Shown here: in pieces, positions 5,380 to 31,842 of the stretch
How positions within the stretch are numbered: position 1 is the stretch's first letter
Layout: each line of letters opens with the position of its first letter
Assembly: GCA_963205015.1 (NCBI GenBank)
Contig: CAUJKI010000276.1
Location: 1 to 46,935, forward strand
DNA: 46,935 bases
Reading direction: 5' to 3'
DNA from: Pseudomonadota bacterium
GTDB lineage: Bacteria > Pseudomonadota > Alphaproteobacteria > Rhizobiales > Hyphomicrobiaceae
Program-made: the position numbers and the translations under genes
Notes under the pieces: model-generated
Database searches by the model: none
Seen by the model: the letters and a program-made list of their open reading frames with translations, nothing else
What the model was told of the DNA's origin: nothing

Positions 5380-5396
5380 TTTACTCATGCAGTCAA
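5380..5396. promoter_or_regulatory. Putative iron-responsive operator (IRO/Iron-Rhodo-box-like palindrome)
   Basis: Minus strand TTGACT-GCATG-AGTAAA, an imperfect palindrome resembling TGA-N9-TCA, about 120 nt upstream of the receptor start in an AT-rich patch. Confidence 0.45.
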
Positions 5397-5610
5397 GTAA
5401 TCTGTCGCAATCATGTCGTTGGGCGATGCATTGAAGCCACATACGCCGAGCGTGGCCTCACATCGCGGAAATGGCACTTTTTCACGATTAACTGCGCTCT
5501 CCATGCAGCGCCTAGCGCAACGTGTTGAACTGATATGCACTCACGGGTGGGCTGCGGCAGCTCATTGGAGGACCGAGACGGCGCAGCGTCCGGAAAGCAT
5601 ATCGGCTGCT

Positions 5611-6279
5611 TCACGAGTTTGTGCGCAGGTTCCATTCCGGACGCATCATGGCCACCAGTCCAGCCTCGAGGCCGGCCGAGGTATCCACGGGCAGACCCTT
5701 CCAGTCCAGCGGCTGGGGCGCCGCGACAAGAACCTTCACGCGTCTGCCGCTATCGAGCGTCTCGGCTATAAGGATTTCCACGCGCGCCGACGAATTCTTC
5801 CGCGTGAAACTAGAGTTCAGGCGCCGGAGACGATGCCGCAAGCCGCGCCGCGTGGCGCCGATGTACTTGACGATGTCGTCCACAACGAATGCATACACTC
5901 CGGCATCCACGGGAATCGTCGCTCCCAATGAAATAACGCCGTCATTGCCAAGCAACCACTCGCCGATGAAGATGAAGCCCGCCTGAAGAAGCACCTCCCA
6001 AGAATGCGCGCCGGCGGGCGCATCCTTTTTGGGCGCATCCATTCTGAGAGACGCCGCGGGCGCCTGCTTTGGCTGTGATGCGCCGGCATCGATAAGGGCT
6101 TTACGTACATTCTGATATCGAACATTCAGCAAGGCGGCGATTTCGGATCGCTCATATCCGGCGCGTGACAACGCTCGAATCTTATCCGCCTTCGTGGACA
6201 AGCCGGCAATGATATCGGCGAATGGGCGTCTGTTTGCGTCCATAGCTACAAGCGAGCTCAGGTCCGTCCGAATCGCCAA
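5611..6279 (-). CDS. HTH + GIY-YIG nuclease-like protein
   Basis: N-terminal TKADKIRAL..AGY.RSEIAALLNVRYQNVRKAL (HTH-like). C-terminal GVYAF..D..VKYIGAT.RGL..RL, late Glu (GLEAGL) and P.WN, the GIY-YIG pattern. Alternative ATG at 6243. Confidence 0.7.
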   Translation of the reverse strand: MAIRTDLSSLVAMDANRRPFADIIAGLSTKADKIRALSRAGYERSEIAALLNVRYQNVRKALIDAGASQPKQAPAASLRMDAPKKDAPAGAHSWEVLLQAGFIFIGEWLLGNDGVISLGATIPVDAGVYAFVVDDIVKYIGATRRGLRHRLRRLNSSFTRKNSSARVEILIAETLDSGRRVKVLVAAPQPLDWKGLPVDTSAGLEAGLVAMMRPEWNLRTNS

Positions 6280-6494
6280 CGCTCAGAGCGCGATAAGGAT
6301 CGCCTATAGCGAATGTAGTTCCGGACGACAACTTGCACATTTCGACGACCGGCGTGCTTGTTGAGCATCGATCAGCTGAGAATATCGAATGCGCGACACG
6401 CACGACATCCTGCAGCGATGCTCCTGCGCAGGATCCTCGCCGCACGACGCTGTGCTGCGGTCTCGGGCCACGCCCCGGTCGCACCTGCGATCGC

Positions 6495-7367
6495 CTAAGA
6501 TTTGGTCGCGCTCTGCGACGCGAGCGCAAGCTCGAGCTTCTCGAGCTCCGCGGCATTGATGCCGTAGCTGTGCTCGGCGTCGGGAAAATCACCCGCGACA
6601 ACGTCCGCACAATAGCTCTGGAACGCCCCGCTGATCAGCGGGGCAAGGTCGACGTAACGCTTGGCGAAGCGCGGCGTGAACTGCTCGAAGAGCCCCAGGA
6701 GGTCGGCTGAGACGAGACCTTGTCCATCGCAATGGACACCGGCGCCGTAGCTGATGGTGGGAACGCGCAACCGGGCCGTAACCAGCCGTGCAACTTCGCG
6801 CGGCACGCACTCGAGGATGACCGCGAAGGCCCCTGCAGCCTCCAATGCCAAGGCATCCTCTATGAGGCGCGAGCCTGCGCCGGCATCGCCCCCTTGCACC
6901 TTGAGGCCGCCGAGCTGGGCAGCGCTTTGCGGCGTCAGGCCGATATGTCCGATCACCGGAATGCCGGCGTTGTGAATGGCAGCAAGCGTCGGCACGATGG
7001 TCCGGCCACCTTCTACTTTCACGGCGTCCGCGCCCGCTTCCTTAAGGAAACGGCCGGCATTCCGCACGGCTTCCTCGACCGAGACCTGATACGACATGAA
7101 GGGCATGTCGGCGACGACCATCGCCCGCTTCGCAGCTCGCGACACAGCCCGCGTGTGATGAAGCATCTCCTCCAACGTAACAGCCACGGTGCTGTCGTAG
7201 CCAAGCGCCGTCATGGCAAGCGAATCTCCGACCAGGATCGTGTCGAGACCGGCACGGTCTGCCAGGAGCGCAAGGGCATAGTCGTAGATGCTGAGCATCG
7301 TAATCTTGCGCTTCTCCTCCTTCTGCTTCTGGAGGTGGGCGGGCAAAACCTTCCTGACTGAATTCAT
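6495..7367 (-). CDS. panB: 3-methyl-2-oxobutanoate hydroxymethyltransferase
   Basis: ILVGDSL, VADMPFMSY, AVKVEGG, GHIGLTPQS, KVQG, GAG..CDGQ.LV..DLLG; GGAGG RBS before ATG 7367. Confidence 0.96.
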   Translation of the reverse strand: MNSVRKVLPAHLQKQKEEKRKITMLSIYDYALALLADRAGLDTILVGDSLAMTALGYDSTVAVTLEEMLHHTRAVSRAAKRAMVVADMPFMSYQVSVEEAVRNAGRFLKEAGADAVKVEGGRTIVPTLAAIHNAGIPVIGHIGLTPQSAAQLGGLKVQGGDAGAGSRLIEDALALEAAGAFAVILECVPREVARLVTARLRVPTISYGAGVHCDGQGLVSADLLGLFEQFTPRFAKRYVDLAPLISGAFQSYCADVVAGDFPDAEHSYGINAAELEKLELALASQSATKS

Positions 7368-7457
7368 GGGGACCTCCGGAGAGCCTTGGGGCTGCGCCAC
7401 ATCGCGGGTGTCCAACAAGTTGGACGCAGATGCTCCGCGAGCGGCACTGTCTTGCGA

Positions 7458-8158
<701 letters not shown>

Positions 8159-8162
<4 letters not shown>

Positions 8163-9985
8163 GACGCGGCCTCCAGCTTACCGGCGCTGTTGGACTGTTC
8201 GAGCGAGCCGCCGAGATAGGCTTCGATGACGCGAGGATCTACTTGAACCTCCGCGGGGGCACCTTGCGCAATTCTCTCGCCGTAATCGAGCACCGTCACG
8301 CGATCGGCGAGCTTCATCACGAACTCCATGTTGTGCTCGACCAGCAGGATCGACGTGCCGCTGGCGCGGATCCGGCGGATGACGTCGGCAATCTCCTGCG
8401 CTTCGCGGTCGTTGAGACCGGCCACCGGCTCGTCCAGCAGCATCACGGTGGGTTCCTCGGCCATGGCACGGGCCAACTCGGCAAGCTTGCGATGGCCGTA
8501 GGGCAGATCCTCGGGGCGGGCGGCGGCGAGGTGTGCAATGCCGAACTGCTGCAACAGAGCGAGCGCACGAGCCCGTTCCTCGACCTCGAATGTCGATGAC
8601 AGCAGCCACGAAAAGAAGTCCGCGGGCATCGACCGGGTCGAGCGGATGCCGAGCTGGACGTTCTCCAGGACCGTCAGGCTGCCCACGAGCTGGAGGTTCT
8701 GGAACGTGCGGGAAAGGCCCATGTGCGCTCGCGCATGCGCCGGCAGCGACGACACGTCCTTGCCATTGAGCAGAATACGCCCGGAGTCCGCCCGATAGAG
8801 ACCGCTGACGCAGTTGATGAGGGTCGACTTGCCCGCTCCATTGGGGCCGATCAGAGCGTGTATCTTGCCGTACTCGATTGCCAGCGAAACGTCCCTTACC
8901 GCAACAACGCCGCCGTAACGCTTCGTCAGATTCTCGACGACCAAGGTCGGCCCGGTCGAAGGCGGCGCGACCGGAAGCGCAAAGGCTCGGTCCGTTGGCG
9001 CCGCCTGCGTCTCGGATCCCTCGCTGGAGCGGGCGAACAGGAATTTCCCGACGCTCTGCACCAGTCCGATCGCACCCTGCGGGAAGAGCAGCAGGACTGT
9101 CAGAAGGATGATCCCGTTTACCAGGAACGACACATCGTAGAGCGAAGCGATCAGCTCCGCGATCATGAGTGTGATCAAAGTACCGATCAGCGGGCCGTAA
9201 GAGGCGCCAAGACCGCCGATAACGGTCGCGATCAGCATGGTCAGCGTCAGGTTCAGAGTGAAGGCGTCGCTGTTGATGTAGGCATTCTGGTGCGTGAAGA
9301 AGGCGCCCGCCGTGCCGGCGAGTACCGAGCTCACGGCAAACACGGCCGTGCGCCAGACGGGCACATTGATACCTGCCGTGCGCGCGGCACTCTCATTCTC
9401 CTTGAGCGCCAGCAGATTGCGGCGGACGCGCGAATGCATCACGTAGTCGCTTGTGATCTGCACCGCCAGATAGACGGCGCCGACGACCCATAGGAAGTAG
9501 GCCTTGCCCATGGTCGACGAGCCGAAGTCGAGGGCCGGTATGCCGTAGATGCCCATCGTGCCGCCCGTCAGGTCGACCCAACGCTGCGTCGCGATCTCGA
9601 CCATGAAGCCGAATGCGAGCGTGGCCATCGCGAGATAGAGGCCGCGCGTGCGGAGCGCGACCAGTCCGACCAGACAGCCCGCCGCTCCCGCGAGAGCAAT
9701 GCCGCCCAGCATGGCCGCGGCAATCGGCCAACCGAGCTTCGCGGTCAGCAAGGCGGAGCCGTACGCGCCGATCGCATAGAAACCAGCCTGGCCGAGCGAC
9801 ATCTGGCCGGAGAGGCCAAGGAGCAGATTGAGGCCGATCACCGCGATCGTCGTGTAAAGCAGCGTCTGCGCGAGATGGATGTGGAAGGTGTTCCCGGTCA
9901 GCAAAGGAAAGAGAGCGATGGCAACGGCGATCGCCACATATGCGCCGTTGCGAAGCCAGGGACTGAAACTCGTCTCAGCGAACAT
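8159..9985 (-). CDS. Fused LivM-like permease / LivG-like ATPase
   Basis: N-terminal GLNLL.G..GQMSLGQAGFYAIGAY and GLYLAMATLAFG; C-terminal GPNGAGKST, RTFQN, LPYG, LDEP.AG, LVEH, VIEAYLG. Confidence 0.92.
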
Positions 9986-15427: not shown

Positions 15428-15638
15428 CGTCTCCTCCAACTATTCTTTTCTTATTGTATTTTCTTGTTTTTCTTCGGTCCGCACACGTGCCGCCTGCGGC
15501 AGTCCATAGACGCCCCACCGTCGATACTCCGACAAAGATGCCGGGGTTGGTCGGAGCTTTGATAGTTGTTGTAGATCGCTTGAGTGTGCTCAACTATCCC
15601 GCAGTTTGCAGGAGTGGCTGTGCAAAAATCGAGGAGCT

Positions 15639-16619
15639 GTGGCCAGGCCCTTCCATTGGGACCATCTGCGATCGCTGATCGCCATCGCGAGGCAGGGGTC
15701 GATATCTGCTGCCGCGCGCGCGATATCCGTCGAGCATTCGACGCTCAGCCGTCATATCGCCGCCCTTGAGGAGCGGATCGGGTCCAAGCTCTTCGAGAGG
15801 ACACCGAGCGGCACTGTGCTAACCACGGCGGGTGCGCGGCTGCTCGAGGCAGCCGAAGCCATGCAGGCCGTCGTGACGCGCGCCGAGGAGGATATCGGCG
15901 GCCAGGATATGGCCGTGAGCGGCTCGGTGCGGATCGGCGCGCCGGAGGTGGTGGGGGCCTTCCTGCTCGCGCCGCGGCTGGCGAAGCTCTCGAAGGCCCA
16001 TCCCAATCTTTCGGTTCAACTGGCAGCCATGCCGCACAATTTCAGCCTGACGAAGCGCGAGACCGACATGGTCGTCGCACTCTCGCGGCCAGAGCATGGC
16101 CAGCTCGTCAGCAAGAAGCTCTCCGACTACACCCTGTGCGCCTACGCGAGCCGCGACTACATCAAGGCGGCGGCGCCGATCCGAGAGCTGTCCGATCTCA
16201 AATCACATGAGCTCATCAACTATACCGACGACCAGATGTATTCTTCCTATATCGACTACCTGGAACTCGTGCTTCCCGACGTCGAGGCACGGTTTCAGAG
16301 TTCGAGCATGATCGCGCAACTGCATGCGACGATCGAAGGGCTCGGCATTTGCGTCCTGCCGCATTTTCTGACGCGGATGCACGAGTCGCTCGTGCCGGTC
16401 CTGCCGTCGCAAACCTCGCTCGTCCGGTCGTGGTATCTCGTGTATCGAGAGGACTCGCGCAATCTGGCGCGTATAAGAGTGATCAGCGACTACCTCATCG
16501 AGGAGTTTGCAAAGATCCACGGCCTGCTGACGGGGGCCAATCTACACGGTGCCATCGACGGCAAGGTTCTCGCCGTGGACGACGTCGATCAAAGCAAGAA
16601 AAGACGGCAGCCGGCCTAA
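15639..16619 (+). CDS. LysR family regulator
   Basis: WDHLRSLIAIARQGSISAAAR..V.HSTLSRHIAALEE.IG.KLFER; divergent from the ligase operon; start approximate. Confidence 0.93.
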   Translation: MARPFHWDHLRSLIAIARQGSISAAARAISVEHSTLSRHIAALEERIGSKLFERTPSGTVLTTAGARLLEAAEAMQAVVTRAEEDIGGQDMAVSGSVRIGAPEVVGAFLLAPRLAKLSKAHPNLSVQLAAMPHNFSLTKRETDMVVALSRPEHGQLVSKKLSDYTLCAYASRDYIKAAAPIRELSDLKSHELINYTDDQMYSSYIDYLELVLPDVEARFQSSSMIAQLHATIEGLGICVLPHFLTRMHESLVPVLPSQTSLVRSWYLVYREDSRNLARIRVISDYLIEEFAKIHGLLTGANLHGAIDGKVLAVDDVDQSKKRRQPA

Positions 16620-16645
16620 AGACCTTCGATCGCCTTACATGCGTC

Positions 16646-17911
16646 TCACATGAAGCGCCGCGGTGAGAACGGCTTGAGGTCGAGAGCTGGCGTTTCTCCG
16701 GAAACCAGCTCGGCCAGCACTCTTGCCGTCATAGGCGCGCCCGTCATACCGACATGGCCATGACCGAAACCGTAGAGCACGTCCGGCGTCGCAGCCGATC
16801 GGCCGATGACGGGCAATGAATCAGGCAGGCTCGGCCGGAAACCCATCCACTGACTGAGGCGCTTTTCATCGTAGGAGCTGGAGAGAGCCGGCAGGAGCTG
16901 CCGCGCATGGTCAAGCAGGACGCGTGCGCGTCGCCAATCCGGGGGAAGGTCGAGGCCGCCGAGCTCGACGGTACCGGCGAGCCGCAAGCCGCCTTCCATC
17001 ATGGTGACGACAAACTTGCCTTCCGCCTCAGTGGTTGGAAGCTTAGGTCGCACCTCAGGGTCCGCGATCATCAGATGATAGCCACGCTCGGTGTCGAGCA
17101 GAACGCGATCCCCCAGCCGATCGGCGAAGGGCTTGGAGTGTGCGCCCGCGGCGATCACCACACTCTCCGCCGGAACATCACCACGGTCCGTTTGAACGGC
17201 ACGGACAGTTGCGCCGTCAAGGGCGACGCCGGTTGCGGAGGCGGCAATCAGGGTGGCACCATTCCTGAGAGCGTGCTCGACGAGACTCTTGACGAGCTTC
17301 GAGGGGTTCGTCGTATGCCCATTCTCCGGGATGAGAACGCCTCGTACGAAGCGCGGCGACAGCACAGGATCAAAGTCGCGGAGCTCATCGCGGTCGAGAT
17401 ACTCGAGCCGGACGCCATTCTCACGACGCAGAGACCAGCCCGCCTGGTCCTTCTGAAAGCCCTCTTCAGAACGATAGACGTAGATGTGCCCGTCATGGCG
17501 CACGAGATCGCCAGCACCGGCCTCACGCGCAAGATCCGTCATCGTCGCGACGGTCGGCCCGAGGAGCGCTCGCAAGGCCTGCGCCTGCGCCGTCACCTTC
17601 GCTGGCGTCCCCGATTGCACGAAGCGCACGAGCCACGGCGCAATCTTGGGCAGATAGCTCCATCGGACCGACAAAGGCCCCATCGGATCGAACATCCAGC
17701 CAGGCACGTTCTTCAGCATGCCCGGCATCGACATCGGCACGATCGAGGAGCCATTCAAGCAGCCGGCATTGCCGAACGAGGCCCCTTCACCCGGCGGCTT
17801 CGGGTCGATAATCGTCACCGCATGGCCTCGTCGCTGAAGCATCAGAGCCGTGCACGCGCCGACGATGCCAGCCCCGATGATCGCAACTTTCCTGGACGTC
17901 ATGACCTGCAT
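16646..17911 (-). CDS. FAD-dependent oxidoreductase, glyphosate oxidoreductase (GOX)/D-amino acid dehydrogenase-like
   Basis: GAGIVG, GASFGNAGCLNGSS.VPMSMPG, DPMGPLS, ENGHT.NP, LDTERGYH, WMGFRPS.PDSLPVIG, FGHGH.GMTGAPMTA. Confidence 0.9.
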   Translation of the reverse strand: MQVMTSRKVAIIGAGIVGACTALMLQRRGHAVTIIDPKPPGEGASFGNAGCLNGSSIVPMSMPGMLKNVPGWMFDPMGPLSVRWSYLPKIAPWLVRFVQSGTPAKVTAQAQALRALLGPTVATMTDLAREAGAGDLVRHDGHIYVYRSEEGFQKDQAGWSLRRENGVRLEYLDRDELRDFDPVLSPRFVRGVLIPENGHTTNPSKLVKSLVEHALRNGATLIAASATGVALDGATVRAVQTDRGDVPAESVVIAAGAHSKPFADRLGDRVLLDTERGYHLMIADPEVRPKLPTTEAEGKFVVTMMEGGLRLAGTVELGGLDLPPDWRRARVLLDHARQLLPALSSSYDEKRLSQWMGFRPSLPDSLPVIGRSAATPDVLYGFGHGHVGMTGAPMTARVLAELVSGETPALDLKPFSPRRFM

Positions 17912-17978
17912 TGCCTGCTGATGTGCCGCACTGCACCGCGGCGCCGATTACATCCAGACGTTGTCAACGCGGCTGCCA

Positions 17979-18024
17979 CGCGTCAAATATCGAAGCGAGG
18001 GGTGTTCATTCGTTGAGGCTATGA
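17979..18024 (-). promoter_or_regulatory. LysR box (TCAT-N11-ATGA) plus TTGAC -35 for the GOX-like gene
   Basis: Palindromic T-N11-A site at 18006-18024; 34/46 identical to 18978-19023. Confidence 0.75.
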
Positions 18025-18983
18025 TCAGACAATCGATGTCCCGAGCCCGGATCCGGCAGTTGGAGGCGTTCCATGCGGTTCTGCAGACCGGGTCGGCGAC
18101 CCGTGCCGCGGAACTGCTTCGCATTTCGCAGCCATCCGTCAGCAAGCTTCTCCAGGAGCTCGAGGCGGAGACCGGTGTCCGCCTCTTCGAGCGTGTGCGC
18201 AAGCGCCTCTTTCCGACGCCCGAAGCTCGCCGGCTCGCCCAGGAAGTGGACGATCTCTTCCGGAAGCTCAGCCGCATCGAGCACGTCGCAAACGAAATGC
18301 GCGCCAAGGGCGTCGGCCAGCTCAGGATCGCGTCGCTGCCCGCGCTCGGCTTTGGGCTCATCCCGCGCGTTCTCGCGCGCTTCCGACACGATCAGCCGGA
18401 GCTCCGCGCGGTGCTGTCGCTCGCCCCCTCCCAGCGCGTGGTCGAGATGGTGGCGTCGGGCGAGGTGGATATCGGCTTTGCCTATCCCGTACCGGGGAAG
18501 CCGACCACGCTCGAACGCCATACCCTTGCGGTATTGCCTGCAGTCGTCGTCCTGCCCCCGGGACACCGACTTGCGCGGCAAAAGGAACTGCGGCCCGAAG
18601 ATCTCGAAGACGAAACCCTCGTTTCGCTCGGCCGCGAGGACCGATCGCGCGACAACATGGATATGCTTTTCGACAAGACGCGCCTCGACGCCGCCGTGGC
18701 GGTCGAAACTCCCTTTGCCGCCGTAGCATGCGAGCTGGTGGCCGCCGGCGTGGGCGTGGCGCTCGTCGATCCGGTCACGGCATACTTCTACGGCGATCGC
18801 CTCGAGGTCCGCCCGATCGAGCCGAGCTTCAGCTTCGACTTCGGCGCGCTCACGCTCGCTGGAAGCCCCCCATCGTCCGCAGCACATCGCCTTTTGGATA
18901 TGGTGGCGGACGCAATCCCGATGGCGACATCGACGTTGCGTGGATCCCGGTCTCATCGCCCAAAAAAGCATCAGCGTTCATAG
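18021..18983 (+). CDS. LysR family regulator
   Basis: IRQLEAFHAVLQTGSATRAAELLRISQPSVSKLLQELE...G.RLFER; start at 18021 or 18036. Confidence 0.93.
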   Translation: MIRQSMSRARIRQLEAFHAVLQTGSATRAAELLRISQPSVSKLLQELEAETGVRLFERVRKRLFPTPEARRLAQEVDDLFRKLSRIEHVANEMRAKGVGQLRIASLPALGFGLIPRVLARFRHDQPELRAVLSLAPSQRVVEMVASGEVDIGFAYPVPGKPTTLERHTLAVLPAVVVLPPGHRLARQKELRPEDLEDETLVSLGREDRSRDNMDMLFDKTRLDAAVAVETPFAAVACELVAAGVGVALVDPVTAYFYGDRLEVRPIEPSFSFDFGALTLAGSPPSSAAHRLLDMVADAIPMATSTLRGSRSHRPKKHQRS

Positions 18984-19023
18984 CTGCAAGGAATGAACTG
19001 GTCGCGCTTTCGTATTTGACCCG
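18978..19023 (+). promoter_or_regulatory. LysR box (TTCAT-N11-ATGAA) plus TTGAC -35 for the deacetylase-tct operon
   Basis: Inverted repeat at 18977-18997 followed by TATTTGAC at the same spacing as in the copy at 17979-18024. Confidence 0.75.
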
Positions 19024-19127
19024 ATATCGGGAAGATGGGCACCTTTGATCCATATCCCGTGCGGCGCGGCGCCCTTTCCCGGACGCTGATGTCGAAGGCA
19101 AACTGCGATCCACTCGCTGGAGCCACG

Positions 19128-20126
19128 ATGAAAGAGATCAAGGTCGTCTTGACGATGGACTGCGAGCCGACGACGGCCACCAGTCATCCGGCCGCAACCG
19201 GGCCGGCCGACTGGCGGGCTGGCGAGGACGCCGTCCGCGGCTACGTCGAGATTGCGACCCACTACGGCCTGCCGGTCACGCTTTTCGTTCATCCCGAGGC
19301 GGCAGTTGCCCAGGCTGCGATGTTTCGTGAGCTCGAGAGCAAGGGGGCCTGCATCGGCCTCCACATGCACCCGTGGAAGTACGCGCTGTGGCGCCATGAC
19401 GGCAAAAAGTACCTCGCCCACTATGGCGGCCTTTCTGCAACCGAGCAGAAGGACCTGTTGGCCGAGTCGTCAGCGATCTGGGCGGAGGCGATCGGTCATA
19501 GGCCGGAATACTTCCGCCCCGGCACATTCTCGGCCAACGATGCGATCTTCAATGTGCTGCGGGAACAGGGCTTCCGTGGGGGCTCGTGCACGGCGCCCGG
19601 CCGCTTCATTCCCGAAATGCAGGCGATCTGGGTCGGTGGCCAGCCGGATCCGCATCGCGCCAATCCGAACTTCCGCCAGGCGCTCGGTGCACTCGATTTC
19701 GCCAACATGCCGCTGTCGGCCGACTTCTCGAAATCATTGAGCGGCCCGGCTGGGCGCAGCATGTACGCAGACTTCCGGCCGGACGTGGACTGGCCCGGCC
19801 AGTATGATGTGAGCTATCGTACCATCGCGACCAACATCGTCGCACAGGTGCGCGAGCGAGCGCCCGCGGTGCCGGTCCTCAACGCGATCACACACAATCA
19901 CTACGCCTACCGCGACACCTCGGATCCCGTGTATCGCCGCCTGCGCGTCATGCTCGACGAGATGATGTCGGCCTGTGCTGCCGCGGGCGTCAAGCCCGTC
20001 GGCTCGACGCTGAAGAACGTCGCAGATGCGGTTCTCGCCCTGCCGCCCGTGCAGGAGCCGTTCGTGTGCGAGGGCGCCATATTCGATCTCGAGGCCGACC
20101 GGGCCGAGATCGGGACATCCGCCTGA
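19128..20126 (+). CDS. Polysaccharide deacetylase (NodB/CE4-like) family hydrolase
   Basis: LTMDCE, PVTLFV, IGLHMHP (metal-binding His pair), FRPG motifs; no signal peptide; GGAG before ATG 19128. Confidence 0.7.
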   Translation: MKEIKVVLTMDCEPTTATSHPAATGPADWRAGEDAVRGYVEIATHYGLPVTLFVHPEAAVAQAAMFRELESKGACIGLHMHPWKYALWRHDGKKYLAHYGGLSATEQKDLLAESSAIWAEAIGHRPEYFRPGTFSANDAIFNVLREQGFRGGSCTAPGRFIPEMQAIWVGGQPDPHRANPNFRQALGALDFANMPLSADFSKSLSGPAGRSMYADFRPDVDWPGQYDVSYRTIATNIVAQVRERAPAVPVLNAITHNHYAYRDTSDPVYRRLRVMLDEMMSACAAAGVKPVGSTLKNVADAVLALPPVQEPFVCEGAIFDLEADRAEIGTSA

Positions 20127-20141
20127 AAGGGGAGACTTGCC

Positions 20142-21101
20142 ATGGTTGTGAGATGGACACGCAGAGCAGTCATCGCGGCGGGCCTCGGCTCCCTTCTGCT
20201 CAGCCAGGGCGCGCTGGCGCAGGCAACCTATCCGCGTCGCCCGATCTCACTGGTGGTGACGTTTGCAGCGGGCGGCGGCACGGACGTGCTGGCGCGCATC
20301 GCCGCAAAATACCTCTCGGAGGAGCTCGGCCAACCGGTCAACGTCGTCAACAAGCCCGGCGGCAACTCCATTCCCGGTGCCATGTCGGTCATGAGCGCTG
20401 CGCCGGATGGCTACAATCTTCTCTTTGATTCACCGGCGACCAGCTCACTCCACGCGCTCGTCTCGGACCTGCCGTATAAGGTCGACCAGCGCACGTGGGG
20501 GCCGCTGCTCACAACCGGACCGTACATCTACGCCGTCAACGCGAAGTCGCCGTGGAAGTCCCTCAAGGACATGGCCGAAGCCTCCCGCGGCAATCCGGAA
20601 TCGCTGCGCATCGGCTGGATGGGCGGAACGAGCTTCACGGATACGACGATGCTCAAGCTTTTGAGTGTTGCCGGGGTCGACGCTTCGAAGGTCAAGAAAG
20701 TACCCTTCGCCGGCTCGGGGCCGGGCATGGTGGCGCTTGCGGGCGGACACATCGACCTCTCAGGCGGCAACATCGGCGCTGCGACGTCGCTCATGGCATC
20801 CGGTGATCTTCGCGCGCTTGCGGTCACGGGCGACGAACGCGTGCCGGCGCTGCCGGACGTGCCCTCTTCCAAGGAAGCGGGCGTCTATGTGCCTCTGACG
20901 AGCTGGAATGCGCTTTCCGGCCCCGCCGGCATGTCGCCGGACATCGTCAAGCGTCTGGACGATGCCGTGCAGAAGATGGTGAAGCGACCGGAGTACATCA
21001 AGGATCTCGCTGCCGTCGGTAATCTGCCGTCTTACAAGGCCCCATCCGTTATGCCGGCCTTCATCAAGGAAGAGGTGAAGACCCTGAGCGACCTCCGCTG
21101 A
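20142..21101 (+). CDS. tctC: Tripartite tricarboxylate transporter substrate-binding protein (Bug/TctC)
   Basis: YP.RPI.LVV.FAAGGGTD..AR, VVNKPGG, APDGY, VPF.GSG, RALAVT...R...LPDVP. Confidence 0.93.
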   Translation: MVVRWTRRAVIAAGLGSLLLSQGALAQATYPRRPISLVVTFAAGGGTDVLARIAAKYLSEELGQPVNVVNKPGGNSIPGAMSVMSAAPDGYNLLFDSPATSSLHALVSDLPYKVDQRTWGPLLTTGPYIYAVNAKSPWKSLKDMAEASRGNPESLRIGWMGGTSFTDTTMLKLLSVAGVDASKVKKVPFAGSGPGMVALAGGHIDLSGGNIGAATSLMASGDLRALAVTGDERVPALPDVPSSKEAGVYVPLTSWNALSGPAGMSPDIVKRLDDAVQKMVKRPEYIKDLAAVGNLPSYKAPSVMPAFIKEEVKTLSDLR

Positions 21102-21117
21102 CCGTGGCGCACGCTTC

Positions 21118-21627
21118 GTGAACGCGCCCTCGCCGCAAGAGAGAGAGGCCTCGGGGAGAGAGGCTGCTTCTCTCACCCGCTTTCTCGAGCCCGTTCTTCT
21201 TATCGTTCTAGGCGGCGCGGGCGTCGTCGACGGCTGGCGGATCATCACGACAAAGGCGGAGACACCCGGCGGTGTCGAGGCCGGCGGCTGGATCGCGGCA
21301 CTCGGGGGAATGCTCGTCGCCGGAGCCTGCGTCCAAATCGCACGCGATATCCTTCGCGGGCCGGAGGCCGCATCCGCGACAGAGCCCGACGTACTCTTCA
21401 AGCCGCCGGCGATCGCACTCGTGCTGTTGCTGCTCTACGTCGCCCTGATCACCCCGCTTGGCTATGTGCTGGCCACTGCGCTCTTCATGGCGGCTTATCT
21501 CCGGATCTTCGGCCGCTATGGCCCTCTCACCGTCGCGGCAATTGCGATACCATTCGCCGCCGGGTCCGGCTGGCTTTGGTCGGCGTTGAACATGACGCTG
21601 CCGCAGGGCGTTCTCCCGTGGCCTTGA
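21118..21627 (+). CDS. tctB: TTT small membrane subunit
   Basis: About four TM helices, LGYVLAT..F, LPQG near the C-terminus; lies between tctC and tctA. Confidence 0.85.
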   Translation: MNAPSPQEREASGREAASLTRFLEPVLLIVLGGAGVVDGWRIITTKAETPGGVEAGGWIAALGGMLVAGACVQIARDILRGPEAASATEPDVLFKPPAIALVLLLLYVALITPLGYVLATALFMAAYLRIFGRYGPLTVAAIAIPFAAGSGWLWSALNMTLPQGVLPWP

Positions 21628-21695
21628 TCAGCCTCCCGACGCCGATCTCCGGGCCAGCACGCTAGCTGCCGACGCCACGCGAGGGATAGAGCTTC

Positions 21696-23159
21696 ATGGA
21701 TCTCCTGAACGGCCTCCTGTCGGTGCTGACGCTGGAGTATCTCGCCTATTCCTTTGTGGGATGCCTGCTCGGCACGCTGGTCGGCGTTCTACCCGGCGTC
21801 GGTGCCGCTTCCGCCGTCGCGATCCTCTTTCCATTCACGACGTTCCTGCCGCCCACCGGCATGATCATTACCATGGCGGCGATCTACTACGGCGCCCAGT
21901 ACGGCGGCTCCACGACGGCCATCCTCGTCAACGTGCCGGGCGAGGTCTCGTCGATGGTGACGGCGGTCGATGGTTACGAGATGACCAAGCGCGGCAAGGC
22001 GGGTCCGGCGCTCGCGATGGCGGCCATTGCATCATTTCTGGCCGGCATCGTCGGTGCCGTCGTCGTCGCGCTGGTCGGCCCATCGGTCGCACGTCTGGCG
22101 CTGCTCTTCGGTCCGGCGGAGTATTTTGGCCTCGGGCTGTTCAGCCTTACGGCAATCGCCGCCCTCGCTGGCTCGTCGCTCTTTCGCGCCGTTCTCGTGA
22201 CCCTGTTCGGTATGCTGCTCGCATCCGTGGGCTTTGATGATTCCTCCGGACTGCCACGTCTCACATTCGGGCAAGCACCGCTGCTGCAGGGCTTCGACCT
22301 CGTACCGGTCATGATCGGCCTGTTCGGTGTCGGCGAGGTACTCTCCTCCCTGCAGGAGAAGGCCGGCCCGGCAATCACGAGCCGCATCGGCAAGCTGATG
22401 CCGGAACCGGCGGAGCTGAAAGCGGGACTGGCCGCAGCTTCCCGAGCGACAGGTATCTCGCTCATTCTCGGCCTGCTCCCGGGCATGATGCCGTCGATAG
22501 GGTCGTTTTTATCGTACTCGATCGAGCGTTATCGATCGTCCGAGCCGCAGCGGTTCGGCAAAGGAGCGATCGAGGGCGTCGCCTCCGCGGAAGCCGCCAA
22601 CAACGCGACGGCAATGTCCAACCTGATCCCGCTGCTGGGGCTCGGCATCCCGACCGGACCGACCATGGCGCTCATGCTCGCAGCCTTCACCTTGTACGGC
22701 ATCGTGCCTGGCCCGCTCCTCTTCACGCAGCAGGCGGATCTGGTATGGACGCTGATCGGCAGCTTCTTCGTCGGCAACGTCATCCTGCTGATCCTGAATC
22801 TGCCGCTCGTCGGCCTCTGGGTCCGACTTTCCACGATCCCCTATCCCATCCTTGCGCCGATCATCCTCGTCGTCTGCATGGTCGGTGCCTACAGCACCCG
22901 CAACAGCATGTTCGACGTGTGGGTCTGTGCATTGTTCGGACTGCTCGGCTGGATCATGCGCGCGCGAGGTTGGCCGCTCGCGCCCCTCGTGCTCGCCTTC
23001 GTCCTTGGCCCGATGATCGAGCGTGCCGGGCGCCAGGTCTTCGCCATATCGCCCGAGCTTCTGCTGCATCGCCCTGCGTTCTGGGCCTTCATCGTCCTCG
23101 GGTTTGTCGTGATCTGGGCTTCCAGCCGGCTCGCGGTGCGAGGCGAACTCAGCGACTGA
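21696..23159 (+). CDS. tctA: TTT large membrane subunit
   Basis: GTLVGVLPG.G, YYGAQYGGS..AILVNVPG, DGYEM...G, EAANNA, LGLGIP. Confidence 0.95.
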   Translation: MDLLNGLLSVLTLEYLAYSFVGCLLGTLVGVLPGVGAASAVAILFPFTTFLPPTGMIITMAAIYYGAQYGGSTTAILVNVPGEVSSMVTAVDGYEMTKRGKAGPALAMAAIASFLAGIVGAVVVALVGPSVARLALLFGPAEYFGLGLFSLTAIAALAGSSLFRAVLVTLFGMLLASVGFDDSSGLPRLTFGQAPLLQGFDLVPVMIGLFGVGEVLSSLQEKAGPAITSRIGKLMPEPAELKAGLAAASRATGISLILGLLPGMMPSIGSFLSYSIERYRSSEPQRFGKGAIEGVASAEAANNATAMSNLIPLLGLGIPTGPTMALMLAAFTLYGIVPGPLLFTQQADLVWTLIGSFFVGNVILLILNLPLVGLWVRLSTIPYPILAPIILVVCMVGAYSTRNSMFDVWVCALFGLLGWIMRARGWPLAPLVLAFVLGPMIERAGRQVFAISPELLLHRPAFWAFIVLGFVVIWASSRLAVRGELSD

Positions 23160-23223
23160 GACGCACAGCCTTCCTTGCCCACGCACCCTCATCACAGGCT
23201 GGCATCACGACTTCACTGCTCGC

Positions 23224-24018
23224 TCACCGACCTTCGAACCGGGCCTCTCTCTTCTCGCGGAAGGCCGTCGTACCTTCGCGAATATCCTGCGTTCCGCCAA
23301 GGTCGTAGAAGGAACGCGATTCGAACTTCAGCGCCTCCTCGAAAGACATGCCGATCGTGCGCCGCATGACGTCCTTCGCGAAGCGCTGAGCAAGTGGCGC
23401 TCGACTGGCAAGCATCGCCGCATAGTCCATTGCCTTGCCGACGAGTTGGTCGGCCGGATGGATGCGGTTCACGAGACCGATCCGGTAGGCGTGCTCCGCA
23501 TCGACGCGCTCGCCCGAGAGCACGATCTCCATGGCGTGGCCAAGCCCGACGATCTGGGGGAGGCGTATCAACCCGCCATCGCAGGCATGAAAGCCCCATT
23601 TCACGTCCTGAAGTGCAAACTCGGCATTCGGTGAGCAGAAGCGGATATCGCACGCGAGAGCCAGCTCAAAGCCACCCGAAATGGCAAAGCCATTGACAGC
23701 CGCGACAATGGGCTTGCCGATATCCATATTGCGCGTGATGCCTGCGAAGCCGGGCCCGTCGGTATAGCGCCGGCGGAATTCGGGGGCGGGCCGATTGGCG
23801 AAGTCGATTGTATAGGTCTTGAGATCCGCACCCGCGCAGAAGGCTTTATCCCCCGCCCCGGTGATCACGGCGACACGGGCTGTCGCGTCGCGATCGAAAC
23901 GCCGCCAGGCTTCGGTCAACGCATCGTTCGCCGCAAAATCGAGCGAATTCATCTTCTCGGCACGGTCGATAGTAATGAGCGTGACCGGCCCACGCTGTTC
24001 GTACAGGATATCGCTCAC
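23224..24018 (-). CDS. Enoyl-CoA hydratase/isomerase (crotonase) family
   Basis: FCAGADLK, KPIVAAVNGFAISGGFELALACDIR, REG..AF.EKR...F.GR. Confidence 0.93.
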   Translation of the reverse strand: MSDILYEQRGPVTLITIDRAEKMNSLDFAANDALTEAWRRFDRDATARVAVITGAGDKAFCAGADLKTYTIDFANRPAPEFRRRYTDGPGFAGITRNMDIGKPIVAAVNGFAISGGFELALACDIRFCSPNAEFALQDVKWGFHACDGGLIRLPQIVGLGHAMEIVLSGERVDAEHAYRIGLVNRIHPADQLVGKAMDYAAMLASRAPLAQRFAKDVMRRTIGMSFEEALKFESRSFYDLGGTQDIREGTTAFREKREARFEGR

Positions 24019-24052
24019 GAGTTATGCTCCGCAAAGGTGTAGCTTCAGCCTC

Positions 24053-24087
24053 TGTCCAGTAGACCACAGTGTCTGGTCAAATGACTA
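24053..24087. promoter_or_regulatory. Tandem GntR/FadR-type operator-like palindromes
   Basis: TGTCCAGTAGACCA (24053-24066) and TGGTCAAATGACTA (24074-24087), resembling TGGTC-N4-GACCA, just upstream of the hydratase. Confidence 0.5.
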
Positions 24088-24272
24088 CTACCCGGGCGGC
24101 AACCGACGCCCGGATATGCCCGCCGACTGCTCTGGCGCAGCTCGACGCTTGATCCCAGGCTTTCATCCTTGTTGTGCGCATCGAGGGATACGCTGGCGAC
24201 TAAATGCTTGCGCCCGCAGTACCGCGCGACCTAAAGAGCAGGCTTCCGATGCGCTGAAGTCGAAATTTACAC

Positions 24273-24797
24273 ATGCCTTCCGCCCATCTTTATCACCTTA
24301 CTCTTATCCTTGGCGGCGCACGCTCAGGCAAAAGCCGATATGCGGAAGAGCTCGTCATGCGTTTAGCACCACCGTGGGTTTACGTGGCGACAGCGGAAGC
24401 TCTCGATGACGAGATGCGGGCGCGGATCCATCACCATCGCAGTCGCCGCGATGCCCGCTGGCGGACTATCGAGGCGCCGTTTGATCTGTCCAAAGCGCTC
24501 ATTGCGCTCGACGATTCCCGGCAGCCGATCGTCATCGACTGCCTGACACTCTGGCTGAGCAACATACTGCTTGCGGACGCCGACATTGTCGCTGCCAGCG
24601 ATGACCTCATTGCCGCGCTCACTGTCGCATCTGGGCCAGTGGTCGTCGTTTCCAACGAGGTCGGCCTCGGGATCGTGCCCGACACACCTCTCGGTCGCCG
24701 CTTCCGCGACGCGCAAGGCCAGCTCAATCAGCGTGTTGCGGCCCTGGCCGATCGCGTTTTTCTTCTTGCAGCAGGACTTCCATTGCAGCTCAAGTAG
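24273..24797 (+). CDS. cobU: Adenosylcobinamide kinase / cobinamide-phosphate guanylyltransferase (CobU/CobP)
   Basis: LILGGARSGKS.YAE, YVATA...D.EM..RI..H..RR, DCLTLWLSN, VSNEVGLGIVP, RFRD..G.LNQ. Confidence 0.96.
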   Translation: MPSAHLYHLTLILGGARSGKSRYAEELVMRLAPPWVYVATAEALDDEMRARIHHHRSRRDARWRTIEAPFDLSKALIALDDSRQPIVIDCLTLWLSNILLADADIVAASDDLIAALTVASGPVVVVSNEVGLGIVPDTPLGRRFRDAQGQLNQRVAALADRVFLLAAGLPLQLK

Positions 24798-24896
24798 CCG
24801 AACTAGAAATGGACCGCAGGGACAGTTGCCTCGCGCGAGAGCCGCCGAGCACCTGCCAGTTTGCCGGAACTCCAGGATGTTGTACGGATTGACGGC

Positions 24897-25793
24897 ATGA
24901 ACGTCGCTACCCCGGTCCGCCCCCGCCATTCGCCTTGCATCGGCGTCTGCAAGCTCGACGAGCAGAGCGGTTTCTGCCTCGGTTGCGCGCGCACGGGCGA
25001 CGAGATCGCCGCCTGGGCGTCGCTCGATGAATCCGGGCGGAATGCCATCTGGCAGAAGTTGCCCGACCGGCTGACAGCACTGGCGGTGCGCATTCGCCTG
25101 ATGCCCTGGACCGGCGACGAGATCCTCGACTGGGTCGCGGGAACCATCATGGAGCGTAGAGGCACATGGGTAACCGGGATGCCGGGCGCGATTGCCGAGT
25201 TTCCCTGCCAGCCGGCTCGCAGTGTCTCTGTCTCAACCGGACCGGACTTCATAGTCGGCCGCGCTGACGATGCTCTATTCCGTCTGCGCGCGACGGACAG
25301 GTTGCGCGCCTTCGCGTTCGACGGCGATGGCCCCATCGTTCTCGGCCAATCGCGCGCACGGCTCGACGAGAGCAAACCCGAGCATTTTACCGCACTCGGC
25401 ACCGATCAGAATGCCATCGATGCCGATCACCGTGGTCAAGCGCTGTTCGATTTCGGGCTCGGCCGCCGCTTCAGCCGTTTCTGCATCCGGACCGGCAATG
25501 CGGAATTCGCGGACCGGCTGAATGCGCTCGCGGGCCTGTCCTGGCGCGAGGTTTTTGCCAAGGCCGGCGCACAGATCCTTGCCGAGAGCCCGACGCGGGT
25601 CGTCGCATCGAACCTCGCCCGCATCGAAGTGTTCTCGGCGATACCGCCGCCCGGCGGGCGGTCGCCTGAGGGCGCGCATACGCACTTTCTGCCGCAGTTC
25701 TTCGCTTCGGGCGAGGAAATCCCAGCCGCACTGGCGCTGCCCGACTATGCCGCACCAGTGGCGGTCTTCTATCCGGGCAACCCTCCCGAGTGA
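24897..25793 (+). CDS. DUF1289 domain fused to an uncharacterised C-terminal domain
   Basis: SPCIGVCKLD...FCLGCART.DEI..W at the N-terminus; about 230 aa C-terminal region with GAIAEF, LFDFGLG, FCIRT, EGAHTHFLP. Confidence 0.75.
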   Translation: MNVATPVRPRHSPCIGVCKLDEQSGFCLGCARTGDEIAAWASLDESGRNAIWQKLPDRLTALAVRIRLMPWTGDEILDWVAGTIMERRGTWVTGMPGAIAEFPCQPARSVSVSTGPDFIVGRADDALFRLRATDRLRAFAFDGDGPIVLGQSRARLDESKPEHFTALGTDQNAIDADHRGQALFDFGLGRRFSRFCIRTGNAEFADRLNALAGLSWREVFAKAGAQILAESPTRVVASNLARIEVFSAIPPPGGRSPEGAHTHFLPQFFASGEEIPAALALPDYAAPVAVFYPGNPPE

Positions 25794-25796: not shown

Positions 25797-26375
25797 TCAG
25801 ACCCCTTGTGCCCCAGGCATCGTCGCGGCTCCTTCGAGAATATTTCGGCTCACCACACCGACCGCCACTGCCACCCGATGGGCAGCGAGAAGCACCGGGA
25901 AAGCTACCGCATTGACGGTAGCAACGTAGGACACCACCGCGAAACTGAAGGCGCCCTCGCTGCTCGGCAGGATGAACGTCGCTGCGTAGAGCACGGCCTG
26001 ATAGGCGACGAACGCTACGCCAAATGCCGCAGCGGCGGCGAGAAGCCGATTGGTCGACGCGATAGCAGTCACGAGTACCCTTGCGCACAGGAAACCAGCG
26101 ACAGCACCCGCGCCGATCGCGATCCCCCAGGCATAGGCCTGCAGCTCCTGCGGATAGCCGAGGAATCCGAATCCGACGATCTGGTTGGCGAGCCAGATCA
26201 CACCGACGAGAATGAGGCCGTCGCGGCGATCGATGTCGAGTGCGGCCAACGCGGCGAGCGCGGCAAATGGCGTCGCACATGCATAGACGCCGCTGAGCAC
26301 AACGGCTGCCGCCGTCAGCAACCCTATCCACAACAGCCTTTTGTCGGCACCTGTCTCGCTGATCGCAGCTTTCAT
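25797..26375 (-). CDS. Hypothetical integral membrane protein (last gene of the B12 operon)
   Basis: Five to six hydrophobic segments, ACATPFAALAA and WLANQ.VGF..LGYP; GAAGGG RBS before ATG 26375. Confidence 0.7.
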   Translation of the reverse strand: MKAAISETGADKRLLWIGLLTAAAVVLSGVYACATPFAALAALAALDIDRRDGLILVGVIWLANQIVGFGFLGYPQELQAYAWGIAIGAGAVAGFLCARVLVTAIASTNRLLAAAAAFGVAFVAYQAVLYAATFILPSSEGAFSFAVVSYVATVNAVAFPVLLAAHRVAVAVGVVSRNILEGAATMPGAQGV

Positions 26376-26416
26376 CGTTGTGTTCCCTTCAGTTGCGGTT
26401 CGCGATGTCTTAGGCA

Positions 26417-27142
26417 CTATGCCACGGCCACGGCAACGAGGAGCAAGAGCAGCGTCTCCGTTATCTCGACGCCGGCGCCGAGGCAGTCACCGGTGATCCC
26501 GCCCAATCGGAGTTTCCAATATACGGCAATTGCGGGAACCACGAGCAGAGCACCGAGCAGTACGGGGGCGAGCCAGAGGCTTAGCAGCGCCAGGACAAGC
26601 CCCTGCGCGGCCGCCATCGGCCAGCTGATCTGCCATGAGAAGCGCTCGCCGGATCCGCTTGCCAGCGGCGGCACGGCAAGGCTCCATACGAGCGGTCCCC
26701 AGCGTGCCCATGCCGGCACGAGAGCGAGCGCGAACAGCGCCGGCAGCCCGGAAATCTCCGCAAGCAGCACGAGCTTGGCAATGAGCTGGAGCCCAATTGC
26801 CATGGCACCGAAGGCGCCGACATGTGGATCGCGCAAGACCTCGAGAAAACGCTCCGGAGATCGATGCGCGGCAGCGAGCGCATCCGCGACATCGCCGAGC
26901 CCATCGAGATGCAGGCCGCCGGTGATCCAGACCCACACGACCAGCGCGACAAGTGCACCGATCCAAGGCGACGCCTGCTGGCCGGTCCAGAGAGCGAGCG
27001 CGAGGACAATGCCGATGATGGCGCCCACAACCGCGAACCAGATCGCCGAGCGCGATAGGTCATCCGGGTTGAACTCGGCAAATCGGGGTGCCGGCAACCG
27101 GGTCAGGAACTGCAGCGCATGACCGAAGGTGCGGAACGTCAT
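26417..27142 (-). CDS. cobS: Adenosylcobinamide-GDP ribazoletransferase (CobS/CobV)
   Basis: ALQFLTRLP, TGGLHLDGLGD.AD, L.V.RDPHVGAFG, GGITGDCLGA..E..E. Confidence 0.96.
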   Translation of the reverse strand: MTFRTFGHALQFLTRLPAPRFAEFNPDDLSRSAIWFAVVGAIIGIVLALALWTGQQASPWIGALVALVVWVWITGGLHLDGLGDVADALAAAHRSPERFLEVLRDPHVGAFGAMAIGLQLIAKLVLLAEISGLPALFALALVPAWARWGPLVWSLAVPPLASGSGERFSWQISWPMAAAQGLVLALLSLWLAPVLLGALLVVPAIAVYWKLRLGGITGDCLGAGVEITETLLLLLVAVAVA

Positions 27143-29931: not shown

Positions 29932-31842
29932 CTACTTGTCCGGCAAGGCGAACTGGATACCGCCGTAAACGGACAGGCCTGGCGTGCCGTAGCCGAGCAC
30001 TGTCTGATACTTCTCGTCCAGCAGGTTCTCCGCACGAATGTAAGCCTTCATTCCAGGAGTGAACTCGTAGGCGACCTTGGCGTTGATCAGCCAGTAGTCA
30101 TCCAACTTCGCACCCCCATCAAGCGTATCGGCGATATATCTGGCGATCACGTTGGCCTGGATCTTGTCCGTTGGCCGCAGGTCAAGACCGACGGAAAGAC
30201 TGTGCCGCGGCACCCGTGCCAGCCGAGCGCCGCTCGCCTGCTCGGTATCGGTGTAGGTGTACCCGCTCGTCACCGTAATGCCGGAGGAAATCTTCGCCGC
30301 CGCAGTCAGCTCGACACCTTCGCGCTTGGTCACGCCGGGCACGTTGATCAGACAGGGAACACCAGGCGGGCCGCATGTAGGGTCAAACGTGATCAGGTTG
30401 AGTGTATCGATCTCGAAGTAGGTGGCCGCGAGCTTGAACCTACCATTGTAGAAGCCCTGCTCGATGCCGACATCCCAGCTCTCGCTCTCCTCAGGGAGAA
30501 GATTAGGGTTGCCGTACTCCGGATACCAAGGCGGGTAGTTGGTGTACATCTCATCCAACGAGGGCGCACGGAAGCCGGTCCCTCTGCTGGCCCGGAACTT
30601 GGTTTCAGTGCCGGGGACGAGATAGGCGCCAGTGATGCGGTGCGTACTGAAGTCACCAAAATTGCTATGATCATCGATACGCCCACCAGCAGTCAGGATG
30701 AGGCCAGGAATCGGCTCGGCCATAAGCTGAGCGTAGACGCTGGCGACGTCGGCAGAGAACCTGCTGCTTGGATCATTGCTGCTGCGCGCACGCGTCTCTT
30801 CCCAATCACCCCCGAAGAGTAGCGACAGCCGCTCGTTGAACTTCAAGACACCCTTGTACTCGGCCTTGACGCGATCCCCTTCGAACCAATAGGTCCGTGC
30901 TCCAGAGCTGAAGCCGTCGCGTTCGATCCGCATGGCCTGAACCGCGAATGTGTTCTGAAGGGCGCCATTCAGCAGATAGAATTCAGTTCCGACGCGCGCA
31001 GCCTGCTGAAAATACTTCGCGCTGTCCGCGGTATCGGTAGGAGGCCAGTCGAGTTCGACGTTGGCTCTGGTGGAGCGGGCTGCAAAGAAGATCTTGGCAC
31101 TCGGCGACAGATAGTACTCACCGCGCCCAGAGAACGTCAGATTGCGATAACCGTCGTCTTCAGTGCCAGCAGCGGCGGCCGAAAAGCCGTCCGTGTTCAC
31201 GCCCTGGACGGTGAAGGAGATGTTGCTGCCGTCCGCAGTCAGGTAACCGGCTGTGTAGGCGCCGCGCCACGTATTGTAGGCGCCATACTCGACGCCGCCG
31301 CTCTGCGAGAAACCGAGCTTCCTTGCGGCCTTCGTCTCGATGGTGATGACGCCGCCGACGGCATCGCCGCCATAGAGTGTGCTCTGCGAGCCCTTCAGGA
31401 CTTCAATTCGAGCAACATCACCCACTAGAAGGTGCTCGAAGTGCGCAGCCGTAACCGTGCTCGACGGATCACTGACATCGATGCCGTCAACCAGGACCTT
31501 GACGTAACCGCCGGTGGTGCCGCGCAAACTGATCGTGGATGTTCCGCCGGGACCAGCTTGAGAGAAATGCACACCCGGCAGCGTCTCGAGGTAGTCCTTG
31601 ACGTATGTCTGCGCGCGCGCCTCGAGTTCTCTCTCGGTGATCACCTCGACCGACGAGCCGACCTTTGCCGCGTCGGTGGGCGTGCGGTTGGCCGAATAGA
31701 TCACGATGCCCTCGAGCGGCGTCGTATCCTGCGCGCTGGCCGACGACGTCATCGCGGGCAACAACGCACATGCGGCAGCGAAAGCCACCCGAGAGACGCC
31801 ACATGCTCGCCTCGGAGCGCGAACACGAACCCGAATAGTCAT
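29932..31842 (-). CDS. btuB: TonB-dependent cobalamin receptor
   Basis: ANRTP....VGSSV.VIT, LPGV, VLVDG, RIEVLKG.QSTLYG.DA.GGVI.I, GFRAPS, NLLDEKY....GY; downstream of a cobalamin riboswitch. Confidence 0.9.
   Translation of the reverse strand: MTIRVRVRAPRRACGVSRVAFAAACALLPAMTSSASAQDTTPLEGIVIYSANRTPTDAAKVGSSVEVITERELEARAQTYVKDYLETLPGVHFSQAGPGGTSTISLRGTTGGYVKVLVDGIDVSDPSSTVTAAHFEHLLVGDVARIEVLKGSQSTLYGGDAVGGVITIETKAARKLGFSQSGGVEYGAYNTWRGAYTAGYLTADGSNISFTVQGVNTDGFSAAAAGTEDDGYRNLTFSGRGEYYLSPSAKIFFAARSTRANVELDWPPTDTADSAKYFQQAARVGTEFYLLNGALQNTFAVQAMRIERDGFSSGARTYWFEGDRVKAEYKGVLKFNERLSLLFGGDWEETRARSSNDPSSRFSADVASVYAQLMAEPIPGLILTAGGRIDDHSNFGDFSTHRITGAYLVPGTETKFRASRGTGFRAPSLDEMYTNYPPWYPEYGNPNLLPEESESWDVGIEQGFYNGRFKLAATYFEIDTLNLITFDPTCGPPGVPCLINVPGVTKREGVELTAAAKISSGITVTSGYTYTDTEQASGARLARVPRHSLSVGLDLRPTDKIQANVIARYIADTLDGGAKLDDYWLINAKVAYEFTPGMKAYIRAENLLDEKYQTVLGYGTPGLSVYGGIQFALPDK

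Follow-up and report, generated by a model that had tools for sequence, protein, structure and literature searches.

Two matching LysR-type operator-promoters at either end of a lysR gene suggest co-regulation of a Gox-like oxidoreductase gene and a hydrolase-TctCBA operon

The OccR-occQ operator of Agrobacterium tumefaciens provides the closest described counterpart of the promoters analysed here; in the accessible part of its description, OccR has three overlapping sites, two of them at -64 and -33 with a half-site in common and an inducer-dependent one in the middle (PMC5002191). The RS/AS sliding-dimer model is presented as general for LysR-type regulators in the available portion of a second source (PMC11495319). 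On the enzymatic side, glyphosate oxidoreductase (Gox) is reported to use glyphosate as well as iminodiacetate, while the accessible text of PMC12452685 describes its normal role as unresolved; in degraders of EDTA and NTA, iminodiacetate is oxidised to glycine and glyoxylate, according to the part of PMC7312458 that is available. The folds nearest to that of the hydrolase modelled below (among them 3RXZ, 3QBU, 1Z7A and ArnD) have been grouped with the PuuE-like allantoinases and the ArnD deformylase (PMC10967932), and a PuuE-like imidase has been described (PMC11424739), as stated in the accessible sections of these two papers. Our literature search, outside which most subscription papers lay, returned nothing that joined glyphosate oxidoreductase with iminodiacetate oxidase, nothing on LysR induction of a gox gene and, for piperazine, iminodiacetic acid and P450, only an unrelated match.

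The window, which is the whole stretch of 46,935 nucleotides analysed here, carries a lysR gene (18036..18983, plus strand) whose start was set by an alignment of 42 orthologues. Its 315-aa product is an OccR/LysR-like regulator with an HTH_1 domain (PF00126, E 3e-20) and a LysR substrate-binding domain (PF03466, E 1e-42), and its best solved relative is OccR (5VVH; E 4e-25 for the effector domain and 2e-30 for the profile). This gene is the only one between the two arms of an inverted repeat. As the original prediction had stated, the reverse complement of 17979-18024 (copy A) and the sequence at 18978-19023 (copy B) are identical at 34 of 46 positions in a gapless alignment, both contain TCAT-N11-ATGA and, at positions 39-43, TTGAC at a fixed spacing, and the two face outward from opposite ends of lysR. 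The pair is the longest of 328 inverted pairs within 16000-21000, and when every 46-mer of the 5,563,766-base assembly was compared, on either strand, each copy proved to be the other's best non-self match, the runners-up matching at 27 and 28 of 46 positions. Beyond the 46 bp, identity between A and B falls to background (7/25 upstream and 18/54 downstream), and Rfam gave no match at the repeat.

Copy A (17979..18024, minus strand) is a putative operator-promoter facing the Gox-like gene, and ends 11 nt ahead of the likely lysR start (ATG 18036). It comprises a dyad box at 18006-18024, centred at about -64, a half-site at 17987-17990 and the -35 element TTGACG at 17981-17986, which are followed on the same strand by a predicted -10 element, CAACGT (17958..17963), after a 17-bp spacer and by a predicted transcription start near 17951. 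Copy B (18978..19023, plus strand) faces the hydrolase-tct operon in the same manner, with a dyad box at 18978-18996 that overlaps the lysR stop codon, a half-site at 19012-19015, the -35 element TTGACC at 19016-19021, a predicted -10 element, CACCTT (19040..19045), after an 18-bp spacer, and a predicted start near 19052 that precedes the homologue-supported ATG at 19128.

Orthologous loci were found in a scan of genomes (one among 60, the Pseudorhodoplanes MAG L001) and in a scan of metagenomes (nine among the 80 matches listed, L072-L080). Taking as sites in these loci the best matches to the window copies, all of which fell at the expected places, we found copy A in 9/9 loci that cover the lysR 5' end and copy B in 9/9 that cover its 3' end; both copies were present in all eight orthologous loci that span both ends, where LysR identity is 64-80%. 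Since the orthologues are related to one another, these counts are not independent: L073, L075, L079 and L080 are nearly identical at the sites, and the set used for statistics consisted of the window and six loci, with L075, L076, L079 and L080 left out as close to L073. Within this set, 12 or more of the 14 copies agree at 20 of the 46 columns (TCATA, G.ATGAa, tATTTGac), and these core columns are 96% identical between orthologues versus 32-37% in the downstream flanks, a contrast that is partly built in, the core having been chosen for its conservation. The first half-site of copy B contains the lysR stop codon in the window (18978-18983), in L001 (7934-7939) and likewise in L073, L075 and L076; in L072 the stop falls at the box end, and in L074 and L077 it precedes the box.

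The genome-wide motif scan that had been proposed as a check was carried out with a matrix trained on 17 orthologous sites, from which the window's own two were excluded. This revealed two strong sites only, copies A and B, which came out on top of the whole assembly with 52.9 and 39.8 bits, ahead of a site at 21.3 bits; five column-permuted matrices peaked at 13.4-20.3 bits in the same assembly. Of all 25 copies, copy B of the window scores lowest (39.8 bits, with its 18-bp spacer). No further regulon member rose above the range of the permuted matrices in this assembly, from which members may be missing because it is 95% complete and in 687 contigs.

One further element was absent from the original prediction: past the -35 hexamer, xAxxxT occurs in every one of the 25 copies, at a distance of 17 bp in 23 of them and of 18 bp in the other two. 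The A and T of xAxxxT are the key -10 bases for sigma-70. We call this -10 weak, as would be expected of an activator-dependent promoter, because its first base is not T. A generic sigma-70 scan of 16500-24300 returned no promoters, since its pattern demands 9 of 12 consensus matches, which is out of reach of a weak -10; because that scan called neither site, the -35/-10 reading rests on conservation among orthologues. Read by eye, TCAT-N11-ATGA is present in both window copies and in 23 of 25 copies and variants, the extra copy in L076 being TTAT-N11-ATAA. The half-site at positions 35-38 (consensus ATAT, 1.0-1.9 bits) directly precedes TTGAC. The copies thus combine a T-N11-A dyad box with a weaker half-site abutting the -35, as is characteristic of LysR-type promoters, and lysR and the Gox-like gene are divergent, with the box over the regulator's own promoter region, which is likewise typical of the family. 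The position of xAxxxT 17-18 bp past the -35 in every copy places the centre of the dyad box at -64, if transcription starts 7 nt past xAxxxT. Counted in the same way, the conserved ATAT half-site spans -39 to -36, and could belong to a site centred at about -43 or to one at about -32.

On this evidence the conserved letters read as a standard LysR-family promoter, made up of dyad box, half-site, TTGAC -35 and xAxxxT -10. The geometry appears to be partly family-wide, in that a weak upstream match (at least 5 bits) was found in 17/126 distant LysR loci versus 0/126 in a control stretch inside the gene. The downstream position of distant LysR genes held the motif in 0/115 cases, so that the downstream copy appears specific to this LysR clade. 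At the level of a strong motif (30 bits), 0/130 distant LysR loci had a site, and neither did any of eight loci that contain a Gox homologue and lack this LysR clade (maximum 6.3 bits; five of the eight loci are only about 4 kb long).

Taken together, these comparisons support the central claim of the original prediction, namely that one LysR controls both flanking units: both copies recur wherever the locus is spanned, the geometry is OccR-like and the motif tracks the LysR clade. We put the probability that the Gox-like gene and the hydrolase-TctCBA operon are co-regulated by this one LysR in response to one ligand at roughly 0.85; activation and a single inducer are attributed to it by analogy with the behaviour of the LysR family. 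By analogy with OccR, a LysR dimer would anchor on the dyad box at about -64, and a second dimer over the -35 would keep the promoter off when ligand is absent. On ligand binding, this second dimer would move one helical turn upstream onto the shared half-site by the -35, where it would recruit sigma-70 polymerase to the weak xAxxxT -10. One ligand would in this manner switch on the Gox-like oxidase and the hydrolase-TctCBA operon through copies A and B. We propose that copy A would also repress lysR itself, because it lies just ahead of the lysR start.

The gene to the left (16646..17911, minus strand) codes for an FAD-dependent oxidoreductase (PF01266) of 418-421 aa, depending on the choice of start. 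Its GOX-like label held up, as the protein is 61% identical over 414 aa to ADD71136.1, which is named 'FAD-dependent glyphosate oxidase' in its source. A quick tree of 60 rows, 51 of them from a homologue search and cluster look-up and nine translated from loci, placed the Gox-like clade as sister to, and outside, an eight-row clade that holds ADD71136.1 (SH-aLRT 97, in a tree with long outgroup branches); no formal boundary of the Gox family was found against which to place it. Gox homologues adjoin bhc glyoxylate genes in two of the three plasmid regions read. Near-identical relatives of Gox are found on small conjugative plasmids of marine Rhodobacterales, as in L067, where LysR-TRAP-RidA-gox-RidA-bhcB-bhcC (1064-9925) lies beside a mercury-resistance operon. 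An IdaA-like identity for the window enzyme was considered and dropped, the match to 6PXS (an entry labelled only 'FAD dependent oxidoreductase', which we take to be IdaA) reaching merely E 2e-10. Elsewhere in the window (33959-39667, minus strand), a second PF01266 oxidoreductase shares its operon with RidA and an ABC transporter of the polyamine type, and there is no copy of the motif nearby.

On the other side of lysR, a gene for a 332-aa NodB/CE4-fold hydrolase (19128..20126; PF01522, E 8.6e-8) is followed on the plus strand by genes for the three parts of a tripartite tricarboxylate transporter: the substrate-binding protein TctC (20142..21101; PF03401), TctB (21118..21627; PF07331) and TctA (21696..23159; PF01970), with gaps of 15, 16 and 68 nt between successive genes. 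The original prediction had called the first of these proteins a deacetylase. Its membership of the NodB/CE4 fold stood, as the PF01522 match, the structural model and the fold comparisons all identify a NodB barrel; the fold is, however, nearer to amidohydrolases of the PuuE/ArnD type than to canonical polysaccharide deacetylases. The model (pLDDT 95.6) was compared with solved structures by VIA-align, and gave as its best folds 3LM3 (Z 21.6), 3RXZ (20.8), 3QBU (HP0310; 20.4), 1Z7A (20.0) and ArnD 8T0J (17.5), with an rmsd of 3.1-3.6 over 227-280 residues and 13-17% identity, whereas canonical polysaccharide deacetylases scored lower (Z about 11-14). A search for sequence relatives with solved structures gave none at E < 0.05, and in the Protein Atlas the protein falls only in unnamed or PF01522 clusters. 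Its homologues are mostly about 332 aa long; motif 1 reads TMDCE, and H81, R130 and H256 are invariant. The model suggests that this protein is likely to be a small-molecule amidohydrolase.

What the two units might do together can be proposed from family chemistry. We tentatively favour, at somewhat under even odds, a route for an iminodiacetate-like compound that runs from uptake through hydrolysis of an amide or imide to oxidative cleavage of a C-N bond. In this scheme an amide or cyclic imide of an N-carboxymethyl amine would enter by way of the Tct system, its amide would be opened by the NodB-fold enzyme, and glyoxylate would be set free when the Gox-like enzyme cuts the C-N bond. The gene neighbourhoods of some relatives agree with this: besides the bhc genes next to plasmid-borne Gox homologues, genes for serine dehydratase and SHMT lie downstream of Gox in L076, and in L077 an MFS gene takes the place of TctCBA, with Gox, LysR, hydrolase and both sites retained. 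In the assembly itself there was no close bhcD match at E 1e-20 and bhcA-C had matches of only 33-47%, so that a glyoxylate route in this organism is conjecture. Five NtaA/SnaA-family monooxygenases exceeded the cut-off in the assembly; they lie on other contigs, without the motif, and were not counted as evidence.

The alternative that survives best leaves the regulation as described and changes the substrate alone, to a natural compound such as an opine-like N-carboxyalkyl amino acid or its lactam, in place of a chelator-derived one. This we consider somewhat unlikely. OccR, the closest solved relative of the regulator, senses the opine octopine, and the divergence of the Gox orthologues in the orthologous loci (67-75% identity) implies that they arose well before there were synthetic chelators or glyphosate; the runs that contain DNA of the module, among which no RNA run was listed, come from biofilm, sludge, wastewater and bioreactor samples, which fit a natural or a chelator-derived source alike. 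The module was not found in the genomes sampled: the LysR profile found 0/400 class genomes, and the hydrolase was found in 0/60 relatives, 0/400 phylum genomes and 0/400 order genomes among those sampled, and in none of the plasmids searched. A more specific version of the chelator-derived reading, to which we give less credence again, is an as yet undescribed catabolic route for cyclic imides or lactams, or for N-acyl derivatives, of iminodiacetate-type amines, as left by the breakdown of chelators or piperazine rings in wastewater; here the ring, primed by a P450 in some lineages, would be opened by the NodB-fold enzyme, after which glyoxylate would be freed by the Gox-like enzyme. If this were true, the LysR with either promoter would constitute a biosensor, and its inducer would reveal the natural substrate class of the Gox family. 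The control mechanism would be of a textbook LysR type; the value of the locus lies in giving access to what Gox-like enzymes act on in nature, as a defined regulator and two promoters make the substrate of the sister clade of Gox a question for a reporter screen. It would also assign to one pathway an uncharacterised, highly conserved family of NodB-fold hydrolases and, in some lineages, a divergent P450.

Co-regulation by the one LysR would hold equally if A and B derived from a recent duplication or were kept alike by gene conversion. The copies had been described as duplicated, a term that our comparisons did not bear out. Outside the core, A sites across genomes are 0.46 identical to one another and B sites 0.49, versus 0.42 for A against B within loci and 0.36 between loci; A is thus nearer to the A of other genomes, and B to their B, than A is to B. 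The within-locus excess (77 non-core A-B matches versus a permuted mean of 67.6; p = 0.041, 5040 permutations, seven loci) is in the direction expected of duplication or conversion, and may reflect shared base composition. Moreover, the flanks of A and B are at background in all seven loci, and the 34/46 agreement seen in the window is the top of a range of 27-34 across loci. Because similarity outside the functional core is weak, recent duplication is not supported, and we regard it as improbable. The two copies appear instead to be old or convergent, and may go back to an ancient duplication.

True copying of the promoter did take place in relatives, where copy A and the lysR 5' end are found again before a cytochrome P450 gene in L073 (369 bp at 80%) and L076 (158 bp at 80%). 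The same third copy is present at a contig end in L075 and L080, and a fourth copy in L076 precedes a hydrolase fragment and an MFS gene. The P450 (L073 4464-6098; L076 10645-14073) is divergent, with best solved relatives at about E 1e-21, is 91% identical between the two loci, and is accompanied in L076 by a ferredoxin and a reductase. Its position behind a copied promoter A and a truncated lysR 5' end has the appearance of regulon growth by promoter copying. In the window's own assembly, a search for an orthologue of this P450 gave matches of only 27-32%.

It is less probable still that the sites serve another regulator, either the LysR encoded at 15606-16619 or a global factor, or that lysR, hydrolase and tct genes form one transcript in which copy B is unused. 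The second LysR gene lies just past the Gox-like gene, and read-through from lysR is possible, as the interval between lysR and the hydrolase gene gave no terminator-like call. Against this, the second LysR is without an orthologue in any of the 10 orthologous loci (best identity 22-30%) and its own divergent region scores -8.7 bits, the presence of just two strong sites in the assembly is unlike a global regulon, and copy B is kept with its -35 and -10 in every locus that covers it, including L074 and L077, in which it is clear of the lysR coding sequence. Finally, although the repeats are inverted and bracket exactly one gene, and the module is patchy (0/60 relatives) with IS transposases near some orthologous loci, it is highly improbable that they serve as recombination sites for the inversion of lysR or mark the ends of a mobile element, as the orientation of lysR relative to its neighbours is the same in 11/11 cases (the window and all 10 orthologous loci) with only lysR between the arms, no strand-changing joint was seen in the contigs of four runs (rare variants are lost from contigs), the two boxes have different central spacers when recombination sites usually need matching ones, the conserved letters run on outward as -35 and -10 elements, and no recombinase was found among the 46 window ORFs scanned against Pfam.

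Several further features of the contig lie outside the bracketed units. A cobalamin riboswitch (RF00174, 106 bits; 32088-32323, minus strand) is located upstream of a gene for a TonB-dependent receptor (29932-31842) and of a cobalamin salvage cluster that encodes a phosphoribosyltransferase, a phosphatase, CobS and CobU. Within this cluster we noted a DUF1289-DUF6925 fusion protein (24861-25793, plus strand), adjoined by a 206-aa membrane protein (25797-26417) that had no Pfam match. An MmgE/PrpD-family protein (40017-41420, minus strand), whose best solved relative is iminodisuccinate epimerase (E 2e-37), is encoded downstream of genes for an ABC permease, a binding protein and a LysR (41522-45805); these genes may represent a second aminopolycarboxylate-type catabolic unit on the same contig.

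When set beside the known systems, the Gox-like enzyme resembles ADD71136.1 in sequence and differs in belonging to a separate sister clade, its own activity being putative; the L067 plasmid locus, which carries a near-identical relative of ADD71136.1 from the same 90% cluster, has genes for a TRAP transporter and RidA together with bhcBC, and is without this motif. The hydrolase model shares its best folds with amidohydrolases of the NodB1.2 type (PuuE-like allantoinase/imidase, HpPgdA and the ArnD deformylase), yet is only 14-17% identical to them, has an uncharacterised protein, 3LM3, as its top fold, and has an invariant D11/E13/H81 set that differs from the Glu-His-Trp triad of PuuE, as far as the accessible description of PuuE goes. 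For the promoters, the likeness to OccR-occQ would lie in the combination of a high-affinity dyad at -64, the predicted position of the box here, with a second site over the -35 that shares a half-site, as given in the available part of PMC5002191, whereas the box letters (TCAT-N11-ATGA), the presence of another complete copy where the regulator gene ends and the targets are different. As with OdcR (PodcA/B/C) and the nod boxes of NodD, in the accessible portion of PMC11495319, one regulator would serve several promoters that have a box in common, and one of these promoters diverges from the gene of the regulator; unlike in those regulons, the two promoters here bracket the regulator gene, whose stop codon is overlapped by the 3' copy in the window as well as in several orthologues.
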